Assembly: GCA_000092065.1 (NCBI GenBank)
Contig: CP000587.1
From: Ostreococcus lucimarinus
Taxonomy: Eukaryota
Direction: 5' to 3' (one strand)
Length of the DNA: 64,000 nucleotides
This document shows, one piece after another, positions 4,401-48,664 of the stretch (positions within the stretch are counted from its first letter, which is position 1; each line of letters starts with the position of its first letter). A model generated the notes under the pieces. The model worked only from the letters and a program-made list of their open reading frames with translations, did no database searches and was not told the origin of the DNA. The translations under genes were made by a program, and so were the position numbers.

Positions 4401-6766
4401 AGTTCATCCATCTTCGTCAACCACGTCTTCTCGACCTCAGCCTCTCGAGAAGCGAGAGCAGATTCAAGCGAAATCTGCGATTGCTTCTTCAATGCGTCGA
4501 TTTCGGCATCGTACGCTTGCGCCTTTTCCTTGGCAGCTTTCTCGGCGATCTCTAACGCATTGATTCTAGACTCGTACGACGAGACGAGCTTTTGCGTCTT
4601 TGAAGTTTCGGAATCAAAGAGCGCTTTCAAGGCGCGGCGTTCCGCCGCCATCGAGCGTGTAGCGTTCGCCAACTGCTTCTCAAGTTCGGCTTCGGCCGCG
4701 ACACGAGTAGCCTTGGCCGTGAACTCGAGTTGCGCCGCGAGTTCTTGCTTGGCGTCTTCCTTCAGCTGACGTACTTTGCTCTTGGTATCCTTTTCCATCT
4801 TTTCAACTTTGACGGCGTGCGCCGCGCCGAGGCGCTCCATCTTGCCTGACCAGAACAAGTTCAGCCTTTCTTCGGCACTTTCAATCTCCTTCTTCAAGTT
4901 GTCGCCCGTGAACATCTTCATTTTTTCGGATTCGGACTTGAGAAGATCGAACACCGCTCGTCGCTCATTCTTGGACATCTTGAGTTGCTTTTGAAGCTCC
5001 GCGATGGCGGCATCCTTTTCAGCCAACAGCTCCGCCGTCATTTCGAGCTCTTCTTCCTTCATCTCGGCGACGAGCTGCATCTTTTCAATCTCGTTGAGGT
5101 GAATTTGTTCAGCCACGGCATCGATAATTTCTTGCTTGGCGGCTACGAGATCTTGCGCAGCTCCTTCTTTGACTAGTTCGAGGCTCCTCGCGTGCGCGGT
5201 TTGCGCGGCGGCAGCGGCGCTCTCGTACGTCGCCTTGAGGACAGCCATCTCGGCGCGAATGGCTTCGACATCCTTGGCGCTCGCCGCCTTGGTTTGCTCG
5301 AGGCTGTCAGCGTGCGCCTTTTGGGCTGCATCAGCGGCACTTCGGTACGTCGCCTCTAAGGTCGCCTTTTCGGCCGCAAAGGCGCTCGCGCCGCGCTTCT
5401 CGGCTTCGGATTCGACTTGCTGCATCTTGGCCTGGTGCTCGCGCATGAGTTGCGCGATGGCTTCGGTATGCCTGGCGTCGAGATCGGCGAGCTTCTTCTT
5501 GGCGTCTTCATTTATTTTCATCTCCGCCTCAGTGATCGCCGCGCGCATCTCAACCTTCCAAGCCGCTTCCTTATCGTTCATGAGAAGCTCGAGCGCTTGA
5601 CGCTCCGCGAGAGCCTCGGCAATGGCGCGCTGCAACTCGCGTTCGGCTTCGAACTGCACTTCAGCCACGGCGGCGACGAGTTCGGCGGCGGATGTTTCTG
5701 CATTCGCAGCCGCCTCTTCGAGCTTGGAAATAAGCGATAACTTCTCGGCTTCAATGGCCGTGACCTTGGCGTGCCAGTCCGCGGCTTGCGCCTCCTTGAC
5801 GGAGATGGCTTTTTGAAGCTTGGAAACTTCAGAGTACATCATCGCTCTTTGGGCCTGGTACAACGCCTTGGCGGCGCGCACTTTGGACAATAGATCCTTA
5901 CGCTCGTCCGCAAATTTGCCTTCCATGCCCGCGACCTCAGTCTCGAGCTTCGAGATCGTTTCCTTGAGCAAAGCCGTGTCGCGCTCGTGCGCCTCGCGCA
6001 TGCGTCGCTTTTCGGCTTCAAACTGCGCCTTGGCTTGTTCGAGAGCCTTGGCCTTGTCGGCGGCGTGTGAGTTATTTTGATCGCGCAACTTTGTGATGTC
6101 CATCTGCAAACGGGCGATTTCACGCTTGTGGCGCTCCTCCACGCGCGACATTTCCATCGCAAACTGAGATTGCTTCTGCTCGAGCTCAGCCATCTCGGCT
6201 TCAAACTCGCGCATCATCACCTCGCGAAGCGCCTCGAGGCGTTCGAAAGACTTGGCCCCCCGAGCCATCGCCTGCGCGTGAACTTGCGCGTCGTACGATC
6301 CTTCAAACATGGACGAATCGGCGAGCGTGCGAACCAACCACGCGGCCGCGCACGTCGCCGCGCACGCCGCGCCCGCGCTGAGCACGCACGTCGCGCTCAC
6401 CTTGTACGCTTGGACGACGACGATGGACAACAGAGACCCGAACGCATACGTCACGCACATCGCCAACGCCCCCGGCGCGCTCGCCATCCCGCCAAATTTA
6501 CTCCACACGTACGCCGACACCAGCGTCGCGAGCGTCGCCGCGGACGCACGAATCGCGCTCGCCCCCGGCGTCGCCGCCCACGTCAATCCGCCCGCCGTCA
6601 CAAACGCGTAATCCGCCGCGCACACCGCCCCTACCACCGCTCCCGCCGTGAGCAGCGCCCGCATCGCGGGCGGCGTCGAATTCGGTCCATCATTCGACGA
6701 TCCCGACGGGACTCCCATCGTCGTCGTCGTCGTCGTCGTCGTCGTTTCGTTCGCCTCGTACGTCAT
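1424..6766 (-). CDS. giant membrane-anchored coiled-coil protein (~1780 aa) with internal 34-aa tandem repeats
   Basis: Track ORF 1424..7075(-). The first 103 codons are Arg/Ala-rich and probably 5' leader, so the likely ATG is at 6766 (MTYEANETTTTTTTTTMGVPS; alternative ATG at 6718). Downstream are several Ala-rich hydrophobic segments (putative TMs), then about 1,500 aa of heptad-rich E/K/A/L sequence, ending in a hydrophobic tail IPVWAYYALGVATAILPRIIAGGL. Three near-identical 34-aa repeats (ARDAALARASELEKEVATLTKNAVDPKELAxLAS) are encoded by a 102-bp tandem repeat. Confidence 0.65.
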   Translation of the reverse strand: MTYEANETTTTTTTTTMGVPSGSSNDGPNSTPPAMRALLTAGAVVGAVCAADYAFVTAGGLTWAATPGASAIRASAATLATLVSAYVWSKFGGMASAPGALAMCVTYAFGSLLSIVVVQAYKVSATCVLSAGAACAATCAAAWLVRTLADSSMFEGSYDAQVHAQAMARGAKSFERLEALREVMMREFEAEMAELEQKQSQFAMEMSRVEERHKREIARLQMDITKLRDQNNSHAADKAKALEQAKAQFEAEKRRMREAHERDTALLKETISKLETEVAGMEGKFADERKDLLSKVRAAKALYQAQRAMMYSEVSKLQKAISVKEAQAADWHAKVTAIEAEKLSLISKLEEAAANAETSAAELVAAVAEVQFEAERELQRAIAEALAERQALELLMNDKEAAWKVEMRAAITEAEMKINEDAKKKLADLDARHTEAIAQLMREHQAKMQQVESEAEKRGASAFAAEKATLEATYRSAADAAQKAHADSLEQTKAASAKDVEAIRAEMAVLKATYESAAAAAQTAHARSLELVKEGAAQDLVAAKQEIIDAVAEQIHLNEIEKMQLVAEMKEEELEMTAELLAEKDAAIAELQKQLKMSKNERRAVFDLLKSESEKMKMFTGDNLKKEIESAEERLNLFWSGKMERLGAAHAVKVEKMEKDTKSKVRQLKEDAKQELAAQLEFTAKATRVAAEAELEKQLANATRSMAAERRALKALFDSETSKTQKLVSSYESRINALEIAEKAAKEKAQAYDAEIDALKKQSQISLESALASREAEVEKTWLTKMDELERAHKVQIERINADHAKAIAESQSKLKSAEAAQAEAIKAKMAQLETDLAKTTKSLEDQLAAAREDAARQLAAEKSRTAEAIQAAAIQAEDGSAAKKELDALTAKFSSTESEYKSTVQKLEAEIKALELKAAAAGTDAKAQFEAEIATLNAKLKEAEEEIKELESQLSEAKSAAANKVAELEKHFADEMHELRSAFDAQAKEGVAAVSSERDALSARIAALEAEHDQNLSLAKADAEKAKASAVQSLADVDAQISARLAEQKAELDAKLAAQIEELRKRTDADVAAASKALADAKAQYEADVAALKAQNARDLTAAKEAAESADAVLLSKISKLETEQKSALQKAKEQVEAEYGAKLTKAQAEIDALKAKLADAEKQNAAQAEKELADALTKAALIPGLQQQVDELTNSLTSSKASYESTLNKLQQDHAAEIDKLNKDHVAALKDASDASDLKAQISALEAQLQSEKDKLAKSLTDAEAQRAELEASSKTALERARSQVIAQAEDQRKKLEQMFLDESAKARAAFEAEVAEYEKLVKQATADLKKAHADELSSIVAQHKSELSQALAKVDTTSAGKVTALEAEKAKLEKAIADTNAALTKASADAKSASNDAASAKAALEKLEQEVASLTNARDAALARASELEKEVATLTKNAVDPKELAALASARDAALARASELEKEVATLTKNAVDPKELATLASARDAALARASELEKEVATLTKNAVDPKELATLATARDAAQARVAELEKSLAAIAEEKSVLANKLSSVDASKAAEMQKLKDELAQLQADLTKALANAQNQRASEIARLTADFESKYASMQQKHESEIDELSRQALVDVSSAEKRADVAEAEIQRLRSETKDVATYKSQIETNEKQLIIVREKLGATEKKLADFLALYGEERKVLEESRKIADDLDRIKRRYATSMEIDESTIDEISSKVEKQLAAADDGEKMQAMMDGRAKGDTVVDVRDIPVWAYYALGVATAILPRIIAGGL
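2212..2517 (-). repeat. 3 x 102-bp near-perfect in-frame tandem repeat inside coiled-coil CDS
   Basis: The string gcgttgccagctccttgggatcgacggcgttcttcgtgagagtcgcgacttccttctccagttcgctcgcgcgagccaaggcggcgtctcgagcgctggcgagc recurs with starts at about 2212, 2314 and 2416 (period 102 bp), with one or two substitutions (T/A residue change). Confidence 0.9.
6721..6745. repeat. (GTC)8 microsatellite encoding the poly-Thr run of the coiled-coil protein N-terminus
   Basis: gtcgtcgtcgtcgtcgtcgtcgtcg seen directly. Confidence 0.9.
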
Positions 6767-39913: not shown

Positions 39914-40537
39914 CTAATCGAGACGCTCGCCTCGTCCTTCAACCGCCCCTCGCACGGGCGTCAGCAATCCATTCGCGCTCAAACTAATTGTCGCTGGGTC
40001 CCGCACCAAGTCGAACGCCAACAACTCTAAATCGTCGTCCACATAGCATTTGCCGTCTGCCCGTGTCTCGAGCGAAGACCAACTCCTCGTCGACGCGCCG
40101 ACCAGTCCCCCTCCCTCGTAAATCTCCCGTATCGCCCGCCCGCTCTCCGTATCCAAGATCTTGACGTATCCCATCAGCGTCCTATCTCCATCGCACCAAT
40201 ACACATCCACGACTCGACAGCACGCGCGCGTCTCGTCGTCGGCGTCCCGGAACTCGGCCTCGTCCGTAGCCGCCGGGTGTTCCAACTTCCCGTACGCTCG
40301 ACCGCGCCGCACGCGCGCCGCGACGTACGCCGCGACTTCCCTGTGCAGTATGGGTTTCGGATACACCCGTCCGTTGCGATTCACGCGATCGCACCGTGCG
40401 AGAACGCCGTGTAAATACAGCTCGCCTTTGTTGTTCGCCAACGACCGCGCGAGCGCGTCGACGCGCGATCGGCGCTCGATCTCGGCCTCGTCCGCGAGCG
40501 CGCGCTCGACGGTGTGCACGGACACGCACACGCCCAT
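39914..40537 (-). CDS. HK97-family (peptidase S78/U35-like) prohead serine protease homolog
   Basis: Track ORF 39914..40624 starts at TTG. The first ATG is at 40537 (MGVCVSVHTVERAL..., 207 aa). Composition is non-repetitive. Blocks resemble S78: ELYLHGVLARCDRVNRNGRVYPKPIL (vs GYAxVFN...GxF), GKLEHPA (vs LWxHD), CDGDRTLMGYVKILDTESGRAIREIYEGGGLVGASTRSW (vs DExGL.....L..T..G.....l...G...g.SiGF), DDDLELLAFDLVRDPATIS (vs L.EVSlVt.PA). The identification is from memory of family conservation, not a database hit. Confidence 0.45.
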   Translation of the reverse strand: MGVCVSVHTVERALADEAEIERRSRVDALARSLANNKGELYLHGVLARCDRVNRNGRVYPKPILHREVAAYVAARVRRGRAYGKLEHPAATDEAEFRDADDETRACCRVVDVYWCDGDRTLMGYVKILDTESGRAIREIYEGGGLVGASTRSWSSLETRADGKCYVDDDLELLAFDLVRDPATISLSANGLLTPVRGAVEGRGERLD

Positions 40538-40714
40538 CGCGCGCCGAGGTTCGGCGTCGAACGCGCGACTTCGCGCGTCGCCGTCTGCGGATAAAGCGCG
40601 CGCGTCCCGCTCTGAGCGGGACAACCCGACGTCTCGGCGCGAGCCTCGTCGCGAGGCGTGCGATCGCGCGCGACTGAAGAGTGCTCGCGCGCCGTCCTCG
40701 GGGCGTCGCGCGCG

Positions 40715-43117
40715 ATGTCCTCGCTCGAGGCGATTCGCTACGCGCGCGGAAACCTCGAGCTGCTCGATCAGCTCGCGCTGCCGCTGGAGACGAAATACAT
40801 CGACGTGCGCGACTGCAACGCGTGCTGGCGATGTATCAAAGATATGAACGTGCGAGGAGCGCCGGCGATCGCGATCGCAGCGGCGCTGGCGCTGGCGGTG
40901 GAGCTAGAGGCGAAGCGAGGGACGCTGACGACGTGCGAGGCGGCGGAGGCGTTCGTGCGCGAGCGGTTTGATCACATGTACACGTCGAGACCGACGGCGG
41001 TGAACTTGGGGGAGGCGAAAAATAGGATACAAGCACTCGCAAAGCGATTGAGTGAAAGCGGAGACGTGTCAGGGATGATTGAAGGGGTGATTGAAGGATG
41101 CGAGGCGATGCACGCCGAGGACGTGGCGTCGTGCAGAGCCATCGGAGACAAGGGTGCTGCGGCGCTGTTGCGCGCGTGCGGCGCTAAAGATGGAGAAAAT
41201 ATCAAAGTGATGACGTGCTGTAACACTGGATCGCTCGCGACGGCGGGCTACGGTACTGCGTTGGGGGTGATTCGTGCTCTTTGGGAGTCGGGGCGACTCG
41301 AGCGGGCGTATTGCTTGGAGACGCGGCCGTACAATCAAGGGTCGAGGTTGACCGCGTACGAGCTGGTGTACGAAAAAATTCCAGGGACGTTGATTTGTGA
41401 TAATATGGCGGCGGCGCTCATGGCACGAGGAGACGTGGACGCGATCGTCGTGGGTGCGGATAGAGTCGCCGCAAACGGCGACTTTGCTAACAAAATCGGC
41501 ACCTATTCGCTCGCGGTGAACGCGAAGCATCACGGAGTGCCCATGTTCACCGCAGCACCGGTGACGACGTTAGATCCCGAGACGGCGACTGGGGCAGATA
41601 TTCACATCGAAGAACGACCGGGCGAAGAAGTGACGCACTCGCTCGGTAAGCGTGTGGCGGCGGAAGGAATAGACGTGTGGAACCCATCCTTCGACGTGAC
41701 CCCTGCGGCGCTCCTCACGGGTGTCATCACGGAGCACGGTGTGATTGAAAAGAACGCCAGTGGATTGTTTCCCGTTGCAGACTTCGTAGCTCAAGCAAAG
41801 GGAGGTACATTGACGGTCGCAAAGCCGAGCGGTCCACCGGGATTCATCGCACTTAATTGCGAAACCGTACTCGATTACGCAGCGTCAAAGGAAAACGTTG
41901 CCAAAGTTTTGGGAGGCGCCTCGACGCGCGCGTCGTGGTCGGCGAAAGAAATCGGTGACGGTAACATCAACTTTGTCTACATCGTCACCGGTGCGTCTGC
42001 AAATAAATCCGTCATCGTGAAGCAAGGTTTGCCATTCGTACGCTGTGTTGGCGAAAGTTGGCCCCTCACGCAGGAGCGCGTTCGATATGAAGCCGAGGCG
42101 CTCATTCAAGCGCACAAATTTTGCCCCGAGCACGTCCCGGAAGTGTACGTGTACGACGCTACGATGGCAACTATCGTCATGCGATACCTAGAACCACCGC
42201 ACATCATCCTCCGAGGCGGTATTATTGAAGGTAAAGTGTACCCAAAGTTGGCCGAACACGTCGGCGAATACTTGGCGACGACACTCTACAAGTCGTCCGC
42301 GTTGGCCGTCGGCGGTGCCGAACTTCGACGCGCACGTCAAGCTTTCGGGCAAAACGAGGATATGTGCGAGCTCACTGAACAAGTCATCTTCACCGAACCG
42401 TACGGTAAGGCTGATAACAATCATTGGACGACGCCACAGCTCGACGACATCGTCGGCGAGATTCAATCCGACGCCGCACTCAAGCGCGCCATCAACGCGC
42501 TGAAGGAAAAATTTATGACTGAAGCGCAAGCGCTGCTGCACGGCGACTTGCACACCGGCTCTTTGATGTGCACGGAGACGACAACATTCGCGATCGACAA
42601 CGAGTTCGCGTTTTATGGGCCGATGGGATTCGACATTGGCGCATTTTTAGCAAACCTACTGTTAGCCTACTTCTCTCAAAACGGTTGGGCGAAGTGCAAC
42701 GGAGAAGATCGCGGCGCACAACGCGACTGGCTCTTGAGCGCTTTTGCGTCTACGTGGGGTATATTCGAAAAACGTTTCTTAGAACAGTGGAACGAACAAG
42801 GAGTGCGCGACGACTGTGGTGGTTTGTCGCCCGCAATTTTGTACGGTAAAGATGTGAAGAGCGGCGCGAGCGCTCTCGAGGAACATCAACGCACGTTCAT
42901 GCGAAAGATATGGGCCGATACTCTCGGTTTCGCGGGTGCTAAAATGATTCGTCGCATCATCGGCATCGCGCACGTCGCTGATTTGGATAAGATACCAGAC
43001 GCCAACGTACGCGCCCAGTGCGAACGCGCGGCGTTAAAGTGCGGTCGCGAGCTCATGCTCAACGCGACGACGCTCACGCCCGAGTCGATCGTCGACGTCG
43101 TGAAAAGCTGCGAGTAG
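40715..43117 (+). CDS. mtnA-mtnK: fused methylthioribose-1-phosphate isomerase (MtnA, eIF2B-like) + methylthioribose kinase (MtnK) bifunctional methionine-salvage protein
   Basis: Track ORF 40658..43117 starts at GTG. ATG at 40715 gives MSSLEAIRYARGNLELLDQLALPLETKYIDVRDCNACWRCIKDMNVRGAPAIAIAAALALAV (canonical MtnA N-terminus), through ...TRPYNQGSRLTAYEL...GADRVAANGD...FDVTPAALLTGVITEHGV. Then a linker at about aa 375-395. Then the MtnK-type kinase (SAKEIGDGNINFVYIV..., LHGDLHTGSLM, APH-like), ending ...VVKSCE*. Confidence 0.8.
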   Translation: MSSLEAIRYARGNLELLDQLALPLETKYIDVRDCNACWRCIKDMNVRGAPAIAIAAALALAVELEAKRGTLTTCEAAEAFVRERFDHMYTSRPTAVNLGEAKNRIQALAKRLSESGDVSGMIEGVIEGCEAMHAEDVASCRAIGDKGAAALLRACGAKDGENIKVMTCCNTGSLATAGYGTALGVIRALWESGRLERAYCLETRPYNQGSRLTAYELVYEKIPGTLICDNMAAALMARGDVDAIVVGADRVAANGDFANKIGTYSLAVNAKHHGVPMFTAAPVTTLDPETATGADIHIEERPGEEVTHSLGKRVAAEGIDVWNPSFDVTPAALLTGVITEHGVIEKNASGLFPVADFVAQAKGGTLTVAKPSGPPGFIALNCETVLDYAASKENVAKVLGGASTRASWSAKEIGDGNINFVYIVTGASANKSVIVKQGLPFVRCVGESWPLTQERVRYEAEALIQAHKFCPEHVPEVYVYDATMATIVMRYLEPPHIILRGGIIEGKVYPKLAEHVGEYLATTLYKSSALAVGGAELRRARQAFGQNEDMCELTEQVIFTEPYGKADNNHWTTPQLDDIVGEIQSDAALKRAINALKEKFMTEAQALLHGDLHTGSLMCTETTTFAIDNEFAFYGPMGFDIGAFLANLLLAYFSQNGWAKCNGEDRGAQRDWLLSAFASTWGIFEKRFLEQWNEQGVRDDCGGLSPAILYGKDVKSGASALEEHQRTFMRKIWADTLGFAGAKMIRRIIGIAHVADLDKIPDANVRAQCERAALKCGRELMLNATTLTPESIVDVVKSCE

Positions 43118-43202: not shown

Positions 43203-45947
43203 CTACCTCGTCTTGCGTTTGTCCAACCACTTTGTGGCCGACGACTTCGTAGACGATCGCGCATCTTCGCGGCGCACATCCTTTGCCTCGACTTTTGGCC
43301 CGTAAGGGATGTGTGATCGAGTGATTTGCATCAAACCAAAAGCAGAAATCGGCATGAATGATATTTTTCCTCGATCACGTGTCGCCGCATCCGCGAACTC
43401 CGCCTCAATCTGTCTATATATTTGATCTCGCGTTTTGGGATTGCCCGCGTTGACAAAGTCAATCACGATGATTCCCGAAATATTCCTCCGCCTAATTTCC
43501 GCCGCTGCGGTGCGAGCAGCCATGACATTGATTTCCGCCACACTCATACGGCTCGAGCCGGTGTTTACATCGATCGCTGTCAGCGCTTCTGTGGATTGAA
43601 TCACGAGCTGCGCCGACTGCGTATCTGGAATCGTCACGCGTTCGCTAAACGTCCTCGCGCGTCGGATCAAGTTTTGCATTTTCACTTGAGACCCCACGCG
43701 GACGACGGTTTGCATTTCTTCGGTATCCGCGCGCAGCGTCGACACGCTCTTTGTGATTTCTTCAAGTTCTTCCGGCTTGCTGTCGTTCGGCATGACGATG
43801 CTGTGAATGTTCGTGCTCGCGAGCTCGCGAAGAACCATTCCTTTGAAATTTGTGTTGTCGCGCCACAATAATCGCGGCACCAAAGGCTGCTGCCGCTTCC
43901 GCGACTTCGTGACGGATTTCGCAGCACTGATGCACATAGACTTCCACCGACGCGTGAGTTCGCTTACCTCGCGCGTGACCACGTCCGGAGGCGCGCTCGC
44001 GCTCGCGGAGCGCATGATGAGATGCGCGCCGCCGCCGTGAAACCCGGTGAAAAGAGGCGCTTCATTCTTATCTTTTATCTTCTCGAGGCCATATCGCCAC
44101 GTTTGCTTCAAAGTATTCTCGCCCCACTGCGCGAGCGAGTCGCGCGTCACGACGCTCAATTTCTTACTGGCGTGCGCGCTTACCCCATTCGCCGTGCCTT
44201 TGAAAACCGTAAACCGTCCGGTGAGGCTCGGCTCCGCCGTCGCGATCGCGCCTTTGTGTTCCCGTGAATCTCGAATGATTTCAAGAATCACGGCATCGCC
44301 GATGTTATACATTCCAAAGGCTTGCTTACCAGCGCGCGCAAGCTGGTCGTTCATATCCGAATGCATCATGGAGCTGATGAGCTTCATCTCGACGTCTTCG
44401 TCTTCATCCGGTAGAGACACTTCCGACGCCTCGATGACGACTTTGTCGCTCTCTTGGCCTTTCCACCAAGCCGCCGGCTGTGACAGACCGTCGCGCAGTA
44501 ACACCGTCTTTGTAAACTTGCCATTCTTCGTCGCCACGCCGACGAGCAGTGATTTCATGTTCGGCACCTTGCTCACCACCGTACCGAGATAGACGTCGCC
44601 GACGCGCATCGCTTGGTCGCCTTCTTCTTCGTCGCGAACGTTTTCCAAAATCTCCACCGCCTCACCGTCCTCCGTCAGAACCGCGCAGTCGTCGCTCGGG
44701 AACCAAATCTCCGTCTTCACGTTCCGATCGTCTCTCGCGCGCAGAGACTTGCTCGCACCGCCGGTGTAGTACTGAAGCACTTGTTTCAGCGCCGGTTCGT
44801 TCATGCGAAACGTATCCGTCAGAGACGTAAACTCTCGCTTCTCTTCGGTCCACACGTCGACAACCTCCACCATGAACGCGTAGCTCGGAAGCATTAGCGC
44901 GCTCGTCCCACTTCTCCACACGTAGGTCGGCCCCGTGCTCTCGGCGACGTCGTCAATCACCGCGAAATTATACTCGCACACCACGCACTCCTCGCCGACC
45001 ACGCGACTCGTCGGCACCTCCAAACAAACCGTCGCGCTCCACCAATCGTTCCCTTCGGGCGCGCACCGAATCGACCCTCCCAGCACTCGCCACGTCCCGA
45101 GCTCGGCCGTCGACCCGACGAGCACGACGCGCTGCCCGAACCGCGTTCGTTTCCGCACTCGAAACGTCGTCACGCATCGTCCCGGCGTCCCGATCAGCGC
45201 GAACGCCCCTCCGTCCCCCCTCGCGAGCCCTGGTCCGCTCCCCGACGTCGACGTCATTCTCGCCCCCTCCTCCTCGCTCCGACTCGCCCGTTCCTCTTCC
45301 TCGAACCGATTCGCCCTTCGTCCCGCGCGTCTCTCCTCCCCCGCGCCCGTCCCGCGCGATCGTCCGCTCTCCAGCACCACCGCCATGTCCGCCCGCGCCG
45401 TCGCGCGCGCCTCCTCCGACGCCTCGCGCCCCTCCCCCGCTTCCTCACCCGTCGCCCGCGTCCATCGCGCGTCCATCGCGTCCATCGCGCGCCGATCCAT
45501 CGCGCGCCAGCGCGGCATCGTCGTCCCGAACCGTCGCGCCCCCGTCCTCGTCGCGCGCGTCCGCCTCGCGCCGCTCGCGCGCGCGCCGCGCACGCGCGCC
45601 ATCGCGTCCACCGGCATCGGCGCTCGCGCGCGCGCGTCGGCGTCGCGGTGCGTCGCGGTGCGTCGCGATTCGATCCGTCGTCGCGCTCGCGAAATATCTT
45701 TGTCGTCGTTCGAATCGAATCGAATCGAATCGCGCGCGCGCGCGGCCCGCGCGTCCGTCGCGCGTCCATCGCGTCGCTCGATTCGCGATCGTCGTCGACG
45801 TCGCGATCGGTCGCGATCGGTCGCCGGGTCGTCGCGCGTCCGTGAACGCGTCGATTCGGATTCGTCCCGCGCGGGACGCGATGGCGCGACGGCGCGAACG
45901 ACGGATGGCGCGGCACACGACGACGACGGCGACGACGACGACCGCAT
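43203..45947 (-). CDS. RNE: RNase E/G-family endoribonuclease (plastid-type) with N-terminal CBM20 starch-binding-like domain
   Basis: ATG at 45947 (MRSSSSPSSSCAAPSVVRAVAPSRPARDESES, transit-like), then about 200 aa of R/D/E-rich low complexity; an alternative ATG lies at 45257 (MTSTSGSG). CBM20-like: RFGQRVVLVGSTAELGTWRVLGGSIRCAPEGNDWWSATVCLEVPTSRVVGEECVVCEYNFAVIDD...YVWRSG. S1 domain: GDVYLGTVVSKVPNMKSLLVGV. Catalytic core: IDVNTGSSRMSVAEINVMAARTAAAEIRRRNISGIIVIDFVNAGNPKTRDQIYRQIEAEF...ISAFGLMQITR (cf. E. coli IDINSAR...GGLIVIDFIDM...ISRFGLLEMSR). Confidence 0.75.
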   Translation of the reverse strand: MRSSSSPSSSCAAPSVVRAVAPSRPARDESESTRSRTRDDPATDRDRSRRRRRSRIERRDGRATDARAARARDSIRFDSNDDKDISRARRRIESRRTATHRDADARARAPMPVDAMARVRGARASGARRTRATRTGARRFGTTMPRWRAMDRRAMDAMDARWTRATGEEAGEGREASEEARATARADMAVVLESGRSRGTGAGEERRAGRRANRFEEEERASRSEEEGARMTSTSGSGPGLARGDGGAFALIGTPGRCVTTFRVRKRTRFGQRVVLVGSTAELGTWRVLGGSIRCAPEGNDWWSATVCLEVPTSRVVGEECVVCEYNFAVIDDVAESTGPTYVWRSGTSALMLPSYAFMVEVVDVWTEEKREFTSLTDTFRMNEPALKQVLQYYTGGASKSLRARDDRNVKTEIWFPSDDCAVLTEDGEAVEILENVRDEEEGDQAMRVGDVYLGTVVSKVPNMKSLLVGVATKNGKFTKTVLLRDGLSQPAAWWKGQESDKVVIEASEVSLPDEDEDVEMKLISSMMHSDMNDQLARAGKQAFGMYNIGDAVILEIIRDSREHKGAIATAEPSLTGRFTVFKGTANGVSAHASKKLSVVTRDSLAQWGENTLKQTWRYGLEKIKDKNEAPLFTGFHGGGAHLIMRSASASAPPDVVTREVSELTRRWKSMCISAAKSVTKSRKRQQPLVPRLLWRDNTNFKGMVLRELASTNIHSIVMPNDSKPEELEEITKSVSTLRADTEEMQTVVRVGSQVKMQNLIRRARTFSERVTIPDTQSAQLVIQSTEALTAIDVNTGSSRMSVAEINVMAARTAAAEIRRRNISGIIVIDFVNAGNPKTRDQIYRQIEAEFADAATRDRGKISFMPISAFGLMQITRSHIPYGPKVEAKDVRREDARSSTKSSATKWLDKRKTR

Positions 45948-47454
45948 GGGGTGCGCGAGCTCGAAAACGGGCGACGCGACGGCGCCGGCGCGCGACGACG
46001 GCGCGCGCGACGACGGCGCGGCGACGACGAGGACGCGAGACGGGGACGATGGATCGGCGCGCGCGGCGACGGACGGCGACGGCGACGGCGCGAGCGGGAC
46101 GACGGCGGACGCGATGGCGGACGGGTCGAGCGCGATGCTCGCGCGCGCGGTGACGACGTACGAGGACGCGACGACGGCGGCGATGCACGCGGCGGCGGCG
46201 AGGGTGCGCGAGCGATGGGGGACGACGAGGGACGCGGGCGCGGCGTGGCGGTTTTGGCTGGCGGAGGAGACGACGGTGAGCGCGCTGACGACGCCGCTGG
46301 GCGGGAGCTCGATCGAGGTCGGCGCGAGGGATGACTTGTCGGTGATGATGTGCGCGCACGACGCGCTGGAGGCGCCGGTGGGGGGGTGGGAGGGGCGAGT
46401 CGCGTGCTGCCCGCGAGCGTTCGCGGTGGACGCGCACCTGACGGTGGACGGGAAGAGGTTTGAAGACGCGCACGCGTGCGCGGGGGAGCCGGATTACGAT
46501 CGCGAACGCGCGATCGAGGCGGGACTCGACGATGCGGGGCTTTACGCGAGCGAGGCGCGTGAGGCGGCGCGACGGGTGTTGAGGCGCGAACGCGACGGCG
46601 GCGGCAAACCGTGGTGCACCGTCTTCGGCTCGCGCTTCTCCGAGGGTAATCACTTCGTGCATTTACCGTTGATCGCGGATTACCTCGACGGGGCGATTTT
46701 GGATCCGTTTAGTAAATCGTACGCGCACTCGCTGATGTGGCGTTGGGCGGAGGTGTGCGAGAAAATCGGCCCGGGCGAGCACGAGGTGACGCTGCGATGC
46801 GCGCCGCTCGGCGTGTTCGTTCCCGCCGCCGGCGCGTGTCGTTTGGTCGGGTACGACGAAGCGAAGCACGGCAGTGATAAGGGATTCAAAGCGTTCTTAC
46901 AATCGCTCGATACTGAGTACGAGACGTCGGCGAGCGCGGCCGGGATGAGTGCGACGTTTACCATCAAGTTGCACCCGAATCATTGCGCCGGCAAGAAGAT
47001 TGAGCGGCGAGCGCAAGAGTGGGCGCCGGATTGGCCCGCGGATGAAATCGCGGAGTGCTACACCACGGCGCTACAGTTAGCGAATACCGGCCCACCAGGT
47101 GCGATGGCGGCACAGATGACCCCGGGCGCGACGTGTTGCCACGTCGTTTTACCCACCACAGATGGACACAGCGGCATCGCCGAAGTCAAGGACCGCGACG
47201 GTCGAACGCTGTACCACGAATTCCACGCGTGGGGCTTGTTCCGAGGCGTCGACGGCGAGCTGGAAGCGCGTACTGGCGCTCAAATCAAGTTCCGCTGCGT
47301 TAAGTCGTGCGTGAACGGCGAACCGACCGGGGTGTGGATGGCGAAGGACTACGATCCACGTCCGTGCAACGGGCTTTTGCTGAAGAACAAATTTATCGAT
47401 CAGGCCATCGCTCGCGACGATGAGCACATAAAGATCCCGAGTGGCGTGGCCTAG
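45946..47454 (+). CDS. N-myristoylated/palmitoylated (MGCASSK) protein of unknown function
   Basis: Track ORF 44935..47454; its first ~337 codons are antisense to the RNase E CDS and low complexity. ATG at 45946 gives MGCASSKTGDATAPARDDG... The body after about 46190 is non-repetitive (WRFWLAEETTVSALTTPLGGSSIEVGARDDLSVMMCAHDALEAP...GNHFVHLPLIADYLDG...). No family recognised. The start is inferred. Confidence 0.45.
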   Translation: MGCASSKTGDATAPARDDGARDDGAATTRTRDGDDGSARAATDGDGDGASGTTADAMADGSSAMLARAVTTYEDATTAAMHAAAARVRERWGTTRDAGAAWRFWLAEETTVSALTTPLGGSSIEVGARDDLSVMMCAHDALEAPVGGWEGRVACCPRAFAVDAHLTVDGKRFEDAHACAGEPDYDRERAIEAGLDDAGLYASEAREAARRVLRRERDGGGKPWCTVFGSRFSEGNHFVHLPLIADYLDGAILDPFSKSYAHSLMWRWAEVCEKIGPGEHEVTLRCAPLGVFVPAAGACRLVGYDEAKHGSDKGFKAFLQSLDTEYETSASAAGMSATFTIKLHPNHCAGKKIERRAQEWAPDWPADEIAECYTTALQLANTGPPGAMAAQMTPGATCCHVVLPTTDGHSGIAEVKDRDGRTLYHEFHAWGLFRGVDGELEARTGAQIKFRCVKSCVNGEPTGVWMAKDYDPRPCNGLLLKNKFIDQAIARDDEHIKIPSGVA

Positions 47455-47509: not shown

Positions 47510-48664
47510 CTAACTGTTGTTTTCCGTCGCTCCGTACGAATCGTCATTGAATTCCGCGAAGAGCCAATTCTCGTACTGCTTGGACTTCTTCCCCGATCCA
47601 TACATCATGACTGCGTTTACGACGAGAGACGCGATGCCAAGGAACGCGACGCCTGCACCCACGGTCGTGGACAGCGCGAGAACGTCGAACTTACGCCCAA
47701 CTCCATCCACTGCAAAGCGAATCCTCGGCCCGTAGCCCTTGACCAAAAGCCTCACGTCTTTGGAATTTCCCGTTTGGTTGTACGTCACGCCTTGCATCGG
47801 TGCCGGTTCGCCCACGTTATGCGCAGAGACCCAACGGATATTATAGCCTTTCGACAGTGTGTTTATCTCCGAATCGGTGACTTGACGCACCTTATACGGC
47901 GTCTTCGGCGCGCACGATTCGATGCCTCGATCGAGATCGCAGTCAAACTGCACGTCCAAGCGACCGTCCCAACCTTTCTTCGCGATATCTTCCACGCGCA
48001 TTCCGCCGCTCGCGAGCAAATCATTCAAGGTCCATAAATTCCATCCCATCGTAGGCTCAGTACCGTTCAAGTTCGTCCACAGTAAGTTCCCGTCGCCCTT
48101 TTTATTTGGGATTCCTGGAAACTCGACGCTGATTCGAGTAAAGACGGTGAAATTTCCCACATTTTCCAGCACGTTCACACGGTCGTCCTCTGGTTCACCA
48201 GGACACCAGCCCTCGATTTCGCACCGCTTTTCTCCCGAGCTTCCGCCCGCGTCCACGCACGCTCCCGTCATCCGCCCGCTCGCGCTAAACGCCCCCGCTC
48301 GACAAATCGACGCGTCCTCCGTGCACGCCTCGTCGTCGTCCATTCCCGGGCACCGTCCTCTCGCTTGCAGCGTCGTCATCAGCGCCGTCGCCACAAAAAA
48401 TCCACTCGGTTCATATATCACCAAATCATTCGCGTCGTACACCGTCTCCAGCCCCGTCGCCGCGTCTCGCAGCACCGCCTGGCCTTTGATTTTCAAACCA
48501 ATGTTCCCAACCGCCTGCGACCGCAGCTGGTAGCCGTGCTTGAGGTACACCAGATACCATCCGACGTAGCTCAGAACGACGCCGACGATGGCGTAATACA
48601 GCGCGCCGAGTCGCCACGAGCGAATGACGACGCTCTTTTGCGTCGTGTACGACAGTCCCACCAT
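47510..48664 (-). CDS. P2X: P2X purinoceptor-like ATP-gated cation channel
   Basis: ATG at 48664. TM1 region YTTQKSVVIRSWRLGALYYAIVGVVLSYVGWYLVYLKHGYQ (cf. P2X YETxKSVVVKSW...). Ten extracellular Cys. Signature GWDGRLDVQFDCDLD (P2X GxxGxxxxxxxCDLD), NFTVFTRISVEF, K..Y.IRWV. TM2 VGAGVAFLGIASLVVNAVMMY. Confidence 0.85.
   Translation of the reverse strand: MVGLSYTTQKSVVIRSWRLGALYYAIVGVVLSYVGWYLVYLKHGYQLRSQAVGNIGLKIKGQAVLRDAATGLETVYDANDLVIYEPSGFFVATALMTTLQARGRCPGMDDDEACTEDASICRAGAFSASGRMTGACVDAGGSSGEKRCEIEGWCPGEPEDDRVNVLENVGNFTVFTRISVEFPGIPNKKGDGNLLWTNLNGTEPTMGWNLWTLNDLLASGGMRVEDIAKKGWDGRLDVQFDCDLDRGIESCAPKTPYKVRQVTDSEINTLSKGYNIRWVSAHNVGEPAPMQGVTYNQTGNSKDVRLLVKGYGPRIRFAVDGVGRKFDVLALSTTVGAGVAFLGIASLVVNAVMMYGSGKKSKQYENWLFAEFNDDSYGATENNS

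Follow-up and report, generated by a model that had tools for sequence, protein, structure and literature searches.

In a window of 64,000 nucleotides from Ostreococcus lucimarinus (one strand of contig CP000587.1, assembly GCA_000092065.1, read 5' to 3'; the window is the whole stretch of DNA that was analysed), the minus-strand gene ending at 43203 is, as judged from its sequence, the O. lucimarinus orthologue of RNE, a plastid endoribonuclease encoded in the nucleus, which is of the RNase E/G type and carries a CBM20 module (starch-binding-domain family) in front of its nuclease part. Taken as a whole, our best explanation, to which we assign a probability of roughly 0.85, is that the gene encodes RNE with an ancestral CBM20 whose glucan role is presumed, that it is translated from ATG 45518 or ATG 45386, and that it forms a divergent pair with a plus-strand gene starting at 45946. 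Read directly and translated, the open reading frame (ORF) 43203..45947 gives 914 amino acids with the N-terminus MRSSSSPSSS, and all residue numbers below (W286, D793 and so on) refer to this 914-residue ORF counted from 45947. The proposed domain order is a fast-evolving presequence of ~70-112 amino acids, followed by CBM20, an RNase H-like/S1 region that would be split by an insertion, the 5' sensor and the DNase I-like subdomain. The parts of the gene are the following.

43203..45518, minus strand: coding sequence of the putative RNase E/G (plastid RNE orthologue); best-supported start ATG 45518 (MPRWRAMDRR), alternative ATG 45386 (MAVVLESG)
45183..45518, minus strand: N-terminal presequence of ~70-112 amino acids, poorly conserved, presumed plastid-targeting peptide
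44850..45197, minus strand: CBM20 module, with the Pfam PF00686 match proper at 44949-45170
44232..44606, minus strand: putative S1-like RNA-binding region with an insertion of ~70 amino acids, aligned by the family profile to RNase E 4oxp_A
43314..44228, minus strand: RNase E/G catalytic region (5' sensor and DNase I-like subdomain), Pfam PF10150

An RNase E/G gene with a CBM20-like module upstream of an S1 domain and of a catalytic core of the form IDVN...VIDF had been read from the letters alone in the original prediction, and Pfam supports this reading for two of its domains but not for S1. RNase_E_G (PF10150) matches residues 574-878 with an E-value of 4.5e-41 and 141.5 bits (cut-off 25.5) over profile positions 1-268 of 270, and CBM_20 (PF00686) matches residues 260-333 with an E-value of 2.2e-07 and 31.0 bits (cut-off 23.3), so that the CBM20 is genuine, whereas no Pfam match to an S1 domain was obtained at E<=1 in the 914-residue ORF. 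An S1 domain is suggested only indirectly, for the S1/5'-sensor region, by a match of the family profile to residues 36-229 of the RNase E chain 4oxp_A (E 3.6e-06), and the S1-like region also has a local match to residues 95-131 of E. coli RNase E. In plant RNE the S1 domain has been reported to contain an insertion (PMC2486463, PMC3458557), and the Ostreococcus sequence is consistent with an S1 domain split in the same way by ~70 amino acids. Over the nuclease as a whole, solved RNase E structures are matched with an E-value of 4.5e-13 by the single sequence and of 1e-18 by the family profile. The proposed IDVN...VIDF core aligns residue by residue with the E. coli enzyme (structures 2vrt and 2bx2): D793 and N795 of AIDVN (43563-43571) fall on D303 and N305 and D830 of VIDF (43458-43460) on D346. 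Moreover, R646/S647 of the 5' sensor LIMRSA (44007-44012) align with R169/T170 of the E. coli LIVRTA. The catalytic Asp/Asn/Asp and R646 are invariant in 11 homologues, and position 647 is either Ser or Thr.

The protein ends 36 amino acids past the RNase_E_G match, and this tail contains no Cys. The Zn-link (CPxCxGxG) is absent from the Ostreococcus RNE sequence, and a Pfam scan of it gave no match to RNase_E_G_Thio, the thioredoxin-like small domain, of which weak matches were seen in some streptophyte RNEs. The C-terminus (43203-43310, minus strand) is formed by a basic tail that is conserved in the clade, A-[ST]-x-W-L...R-[KR]-T-R. On these grounds the Ostreococcus protein can be regarded as a minimal RNE. 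It shares with the plant chloroplast RNase E/G proteins (Arabidopsis RNE At2g04270, rice OsRNE, Populus) the order CBM20, S1 (putative in Ostreococcus) with insertion and catalytic core, and the bacterial degradosome scaffold is absent from both. However, at ~770 amino acids it is shorter than the ~1000-1400 amino acids of the plant proteins and ends directly after the DNase I-like subdomain, with the clade-specific basic tail (...WL..RKTR) in place of the Zn-link variant, the thioredoxin-like small domain and the plant-type C-terminal extension. With the N-terminal half of E. coli RNase E, with RNase G and with the compact cyanobacterial RNase E it has in common the equivalents of D303, N305 and D346 and the Arg of the 5' sensor, but it adds the CBM20, the presequence and the insertion in the putative S1 and lacks the Zn-link (CPxCxGxG) and the small domain. 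In E. coli the two parts that the Mamiellales RNEs lack, the Zn-link and the thioredoxin-like small domain, mediate the oligomerisation of RNase E.

The coupling of an RNase E/G with a starch-binding fold had first been taken to be unusual. It is instead the usual domain layout of the plastid RNEs, found in prasinophytes as well as in angiosperms and the lineages between them, and it is already present in UniProt names and in the paper on rice OsRNE, which is described there as an N-terminal “CBM2” plus RNase E/G. Automatic annotation has the CBM20 of the O. lucimarinus RNE already: an exact-sequence look-up, which identifies the DNA as that of strain CCE9901, showed that the translation from ATG 45257 is identical to XP_001418923.1 (684 amino acids, “predicted protein”), and the UniProt name of this protein (A4S070) is “CBM20 domain-containing protein”. 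Word-indexed homologue searches returned Mamiellales relatives and a few bacteria only, and PF00686 and PF10150 occur together in 11 of 11 close homologues (53-99% identity) from Mamiellales genomes and metagenomes. The streptophyte RNEs were reached by an exhaustive HMMER profile search over 1.84 billion representatives, in which the ranking falls sharply after the Mamiellales clade and continues, at E-values of ~1e-41 to 1e-30, with streptophyte chloroplast RNEs and metagenomic sequences. The named sequences in this next group are from Chlorokybus atmophyticus, Selaginella, Riccia fluitans, Ceratopteris richardii, Diphasiastrum, Populus trichocarpa and Setaria viridis. In the databases the Selaginella protein is called “ribonuclease E/G-like protein, chloroplastic”, those of Riccia fluitans and Ceratopteris richardii “CBM20 domain-containing protein”, and the Populus trichocarpa entry carries both names. 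By Pfam scan, CBM_20 and RNase_E_G were found together in Chlorokybus, Riccia, Ceratopteris, Diphasiastrum, Populus, Setaria and two algal sequences. The classical Arabidopsis papers mention only a “large N-terminal extension” with a function that was then unassigned (PMC2486463, PMC3458557).

Within the module itself, the K578 of the Aspergillus niger glucoamylase domain is replaced by N in 6 of 10 RNE CBM20s, from Ostreococcus through ferns to Populus and Setaria, in a signature E-Y-N-[YF]-F, and this common change argues for a single ancestral fusion. It can be assumed from the distribution of the domains that the CBM20 was fused to RNE before the chlorophyte/streptophyte split and has been kept since, and hence that it is ancestral to the plastid RNE of Viridiplantae. 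At E<=0.01 no CBM_20 match was obtained in the RNE of Selaginella (P0072). The domain combination as such is thus a normal and database-annotated feature of the green lineage that was already known. What is added here is the state of its binding sites, which resembles that of a regulatory plastidial CBM20 in that site 1 has been retained but site 2 has not.

To describe these sites, RNE CBM20s from ten lineages were aligned with the starch-binding domain of A. niger glucoamylase (1ac0), which is also the top solved-structure match of the module by sequence (E 0.0012); names such as W543 follow the glucoamylase numbering, and the sequence used for that domain agrees with the PDB alignment over its first 60 residues. 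W286 and W344 of Ostreococcus correspond to the site-1 residues W543 and W590 and are both invariant in the Mamiellales alignment. Among the ten lineages the W543 equivalent is found in 10/10 and the W590 equivalent in 8/10, and the core W563 is retained in most. The site-2 tyrosines Y527 and Y556, on the other hand, are gone in 10/10; in Ostreococcus, F270 stands in place of Y527 and the loop with Y556 is deleted. Compared with 1AC0 as the CBM20 prototype, the RNE module therefore keeps equivalents of W543, W563 and W590 but differs by Y527->F, the missing Y556 loop, K578->N and N595->S, and by an insertion of ~10 amino acids ahead of the EYNF strand. The comparison with the sister lineage at a syntenic locus (L001; 91% protein identity over the whole ORF and 96% over the conserved part) gives 10 synonymous and 4 non-synonymous codon changes in the CBM20, with substitutions distributed 4/1/10 over the codon positions, which indicates at the sequence level that the module is under purifying selection.

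A close known parallel is GWD3/PWD of Arabidopsis, a plastidial and non-amylolytic enzyme that likewise bears a single N-terminal CBM20 with binding site 1 retained and the residues of site 2 gone. The CBM20 of plastidial GWD3 has site 1 only and binds glucans weakly, with low affinity (PMC6243121). The two differ in that the substrate of GWD3 is starch, whereas the partner domain in RNE is an RNA endonuclease, and in that binding measurements exist for GWD3 alone. By analogy, the RNE CBM20 may confer a weak and reversible affinity for alpha-glucan or starch, through which the cleavage of RNA in the plastid would be positioned or regulated with respect to the starch granule or the carbon status. 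Weak, site-1-mediated binding of alpha-glucan that positions or regulates RNE relative to starch is our best guess, but a tentative one that we hold with clearly less than even confidence. In its stronger form, in which the module would be a working low-affinity glucan sensor or tether and would tie RNA cleavage in the chloroplast physically to the granule or to the diurnal glucan status, we consider the idea rather unlikely. If it were true, plastid gene expression would be linked directly to carbon storage, a connection that lies outside the existing RNE literature. The tether could then be demonstrated most simply in Ostreococcus, whose RNE is minimal and whose plastid contains only one starch granule. 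In a full-text literature search for RNase E in connection with CBM20, starch binding or the starch granule, no study that addresses the function of the RNE CBM20 was found.

Several observations weigh against a glucan role or against the generality of the fusion. The polar residues of site 1 are replaced in Ostreococcus (N327 for K578, S349 for N595), and the W590 equivalent is missing in Riccia and Diphasiastrum. No CBM_20 match was obtained at E<=0.01 in the RNEs of Cuscuta campestris (P0116) and Calypogeia fissa (P0100), which, as for Selaginella, could be due to truncated gene models or to secondary loss; Cuscuta is parasitic, and its photosynthesis is reduced. Furthermore, an AlphaFold2 model of the whole RNase (18-sequence alignment) reached a pLDDT (predicted local distance difference test) of 52, which is too poor for a fold search or for inspection of the site, and over the CBM20 region it shows a series of beta strands at a pLDDT of only ~45-55. 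The changed site-1 polar residues, the loss of site 2 in every RNE CBM20 and the missing W590 equivalents would also be expected if the module no longer bound glucan and had been co-opted for protein-protein contacts, oligomerisation or contact with RNA, for example as a stand-in for the missing Zn-link and small domain or for the docking of a partner, as with RHON1 in vascular plants. The absence of Zn-link and small domain from the Ostreococcus protein fits such a co-option, as does the view of the plant RNE literature that the N-terminal extension is a possible scaffold, and a recent preprint reports a parallel, a homologue of starch-branching enzyme that was recruited to plastid RNA splicing (bioRxiv 10.1101/2025.01.08.628318). 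However, the pair of Trp residues that forms the glucan platform is kept in most lineages across Viridiplantae, and the GWD3 module still binds glucans weakly with site 1 alone (PMC6243121). Co-option is the main alternative, although we would not bet on it.

The start of translation of the RNase gene has to be deduced from the region between it and its plus-strand neighbour, which contains these features.

45945-45948, no strand: CATG palindrome, with a plus ATG at 45946 and a minus ATG at 45947 (direct read)
45946..47454, plus strand: gene of 502 amino acids, restricted to Mamiellales, with an MGC N-terminus (MGCASSK)
45519..45945, no strand: predicted shared divergent spacer (bidirectional promoter and 5' untranslated regions, UTRs), of low complexity and with short tandem repeats
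45692..45699, plus strand: core of the plant evening element, AAATATCT, within the most AT-rich island of the spacer

It had been proposed that the RNase starts with MRSSSSPSSS, described as transit-like, at ATG 45947, so that the start codons of the two genes would overlap in CATG and their 5' UTRs would overlap fully. Direct reading confirmed the CATG and both ATGs; the plus frame at the junction reads ...DDDDRMGCASSKTGD and the plus strand ...DDDDRMGCASSK. An ATG is indeed present at 45947 and the ORF is open from there, and in relatives candidate RNase ATGs lie as near as 4 nucleotides (L002) and 33 nucleotides (L004) to the MGC ATG, so that very short spacers do occur in the clade. However, the minus frame remains open for 183 codons past 45947 into the antisense of the plus gene, up to an in-frame stop at 46496, which means that its openness is a matter of composition and uninformative on coding. 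The codon-usage log-odds in the RNase frame are negative or about zero from 45977 to ~45620 and turn positive only below ~45620, and the region upstream is built of short tandem repeats. In L001, where the MGC ATG is at 5562 and the first RNase ATG at 5983, the RNase frame is broken between the two by a stop at 5791, and the DNA alignment with L001 contains indels of 1, 1, 1, 5 and ~23 nucleotides upstream of ~45525, but of 6, 6 and 18 nucleotides downstream, so that frame-preserving indels are found only downstream of ~45525. Finally, none of the distinct homologues has anything that corresponds to the ~150 amino acids which such a start adds ahead of ATG 45518. ATG 45947 is therefore almost certainly spurious as the RNase start, and with it the overlap of start codons falls away. 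Any ATG that is preceded by C gives an ATG on the opposite strand, so that the overlap in CATG is no more than expected by chance; it is a coincidence, an ORF-calling artefact of a stop-free, GC-rich repeat spacer. The original prediction had left the choice between head-to-head genes with overlapping 5' UTRs and one wrong start, and it is the latter option that was right.

As the wrong start's replacement, ATG 45257 (MTSTSGSG), ~25 amino acids before the CBM20, had been offered as a fallback, and it is also the start of the deposited model XP_001418923.1, with 5' UTR upstream of it. Apart from the deposit itself, a weak protein-level constraint upstream of the CBM20 speaks for it. But this ATG is not conserved: it reads GCG in L001, where the ORF continues upstream in frame and where the next downstream in-frame Met would truncate the CBM20, so that L001 has to initiate at least 72 amino acids upstream of the GRC(V/I/L)xTFRV motif. 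The indels between 45257 and 45518 keep the frame (6 and 18 nucleotides), codon usage in the RNase frame peaks upstream of 45257, at 45378-45497, and all orthologues have open extensions of at least ~100 amino acids with a Met. Moreover, 25 residues are short for a plastid presequence. We consider the deposited start improbable.

Better supported by the sequence comparisons are ATG 45518 and ATG 45386. Ahead of the CBM20, L001 has in-frame Mets only at the positions that correspond to 45518, 45500 and 45386, and across five orthologous loci a Met is found 102-132 amino acids ahead of GRC(V/I/L)xTFRV, with 45518 lying 112 amino acids ahead of it. All orthologues also have a non-conserved extension of ~100-130 amino acids ahead of the CBM20. 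In the presequence, substitutions relative to L001 are spread evenly over the codon positions (9/12/11 and 5/9/6), which suggests little constraint at the protein level, and the presequence is presumed from its sequence to be a candidate plastid-targeting peptide; plastid localisation of RNE has been demonstrated for Arabidopsis and rice only. What speaks against this part of our explanation is, on the one hand, that the acidity of the presequence is unusual for a transit peptide. On the other hand, the stretch 45387-45518 shows 0 synonymous and 18 non-synonymous codon changes relative to L001, again evenly distributed over the codon positions, and could be 5' UTR; owing to this absence of protein-level constraint, 45386 (MAVVLESG) stays a live alternative. 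In addition, the rejection of 45257, like the decision between 45518 and 45386, is based on essentially one close relative and on codon statistics. The NCBI model of the RNase is probably truncated by 43-87 amino acids, and with the plus-strand model described below, both deposited gene models at this locus probably have wrong starts.

Other explanations for the 5' end were rejected. A spliced 5' exon of the RNase was discarded, since the window sequence yields the exact translation of the single-exon NCBI model and since, between the CBM20 and the stop, the gaps in the alignment of the ORF with its homologues are all short. Starts at 45617 and 45602 (MPVDAMARV), which prokaryote-style gene callers have taken for 804-residue entries, were discarded because the former ATG lacks conservation and the latter lies out of frame in L001. 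A Logan contig of 3,068 nucleotides with a 99% identical gene is not a transcript but genomic, as it spans parts of both neighbouring genes.

The plus-strand neighbour starts at 45946 with MGCASSK, as originally predicted. The N-terminus MGC(A/S)x(S/A/G)(K/T/...) is kept in 10 of the 13 sequences aligned, including relatives with as little as 47% identity, the codon-usage log-odds in the frame of this gene turn positive at ~45920, and the Met of MGC is the first in-frame Met with coding signal; conservation and codon signal together show that 45946 is the real start. The NCBI model (XP_001418692.1/A4S071, 446 amino acids) begins at the internal Met57 and hence appears to be truncated by 56 amino acids, missing the acylation motif and a disordered linker. 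MGCASSK agrees with the consensus for N-myristoylation and palmitoylation of Cys3 (M-G, Cys at position 3, Ser/Thr at position 6), and this general consensus predicts a myristoyl/palmitoyl membrane anchor. Dual-acylated proteins that begin with MGC include G-alpha-i (MGCTLS), plant CBL1 (MGCFHS) and Src-family kinases. The plus protein resembles these in its start M-G-C-x-x-S-K, of which Gly2, Cys3 and Ser6 are family-wide conserved positions, and the following disordered linker of ~48 residues, but its folded part belongs to no Pfam family and its lipidation is a prediction only. AlphaFold2 gave a pLDDT of 82, with residues 1-48 disordered and a compact fold thereafter. Pfam found no family in the protein or its 12 homologues, and among solved structures no convincing relative was found. 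As homologues were found only in Mamiellales-type sequences, the neighbour of RNE is a clade-restricted protein without recognisable family that is nevertheless predicted to fold with confidence.

The two genes are conserved head-to-head neighbours with a predicted shared divergent promoter region. The gene order is tetraspanin, P2X receptor and MGC protein on one strand, facing RNE, an MtnA-MtnK fusion, a Peptidase_S77-like gene, an enoyl-CoA hydratase and a ClpB-like gene, and it is kept in all five fetched loci, except beyond the end of the shorter contig L005, from which it follows that the head-to-head pairing is old. Depending on whether the RNase starts at 45518 or 45386, the distance between the two coding sequences is 428-560 nucleotides, and in L004 and L002 the spacer measures at most ~110 nucleotides. 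No frame has a positive codon-usage score between ~45620 and ~45920, and the spacer contains the tandem arrays (CG)n, (TCGAA)4.6, (GCGTCGCGGT)2.8, (TCGCGATCG)4.4 and (ACG)8.7. An Rfam scan of the spacer found no family, with two chance-level matches far under threshold, and a scan for bacterial promoters and terminators, the models of which are not apt for a eukaryote, found nothing. The evening-element core AAATATCT occurs three times in the 64-kb window. L001 shares the spacer copy (5797), and the equivalent spacer of L004 contains a perfect AAAATATCT (4954); among the five related loci examined, AAATATCT is absent from the spacers of L002, L003 and L005. It may be a candidate clock-related cis-element that drives one or both genes.

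Stop-free antisense frames run for hundreds of codons through the respective other gene and the spacer, at 44935-47454 on the plus strand and 43203-46496 on the minus strand; the plus ORF, for instance, reaches back to 44935 without a stop, crossing the antisense of the CBM20. Long ORFs are no evidence of coding in this genome of ~60-65% GC.

Among the genes nearby, 40658-43117 on the plus strand is one ORF in which a methylthioribose-1-phosphate isomerase of the IF-2B type (MtnA-like) is fused to an APH-type kinase (MtnK-like). This fusion joins two consecutive steps of methionine salvage and is present in all related loci according to the Pfam labels on called genes. The ORF 39914-40624 (minus strand) corresponds to a syntenic gene that is labelled Peptidase_S77 in relatives, the family of the phage T4 prohead protease, which is unexpected in a green alga; it contains the internal stretch ...RRAMGVCVSVH..., a possible further acylation motif with an MG start. 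Tail-to-tail with the MGC gene lies a homologue of the P2X receptors at 47510-48664 on the minus strand (Pfam P2X_receptor in the syntenic loci), and P2X receptors are known in Ostreococcus.

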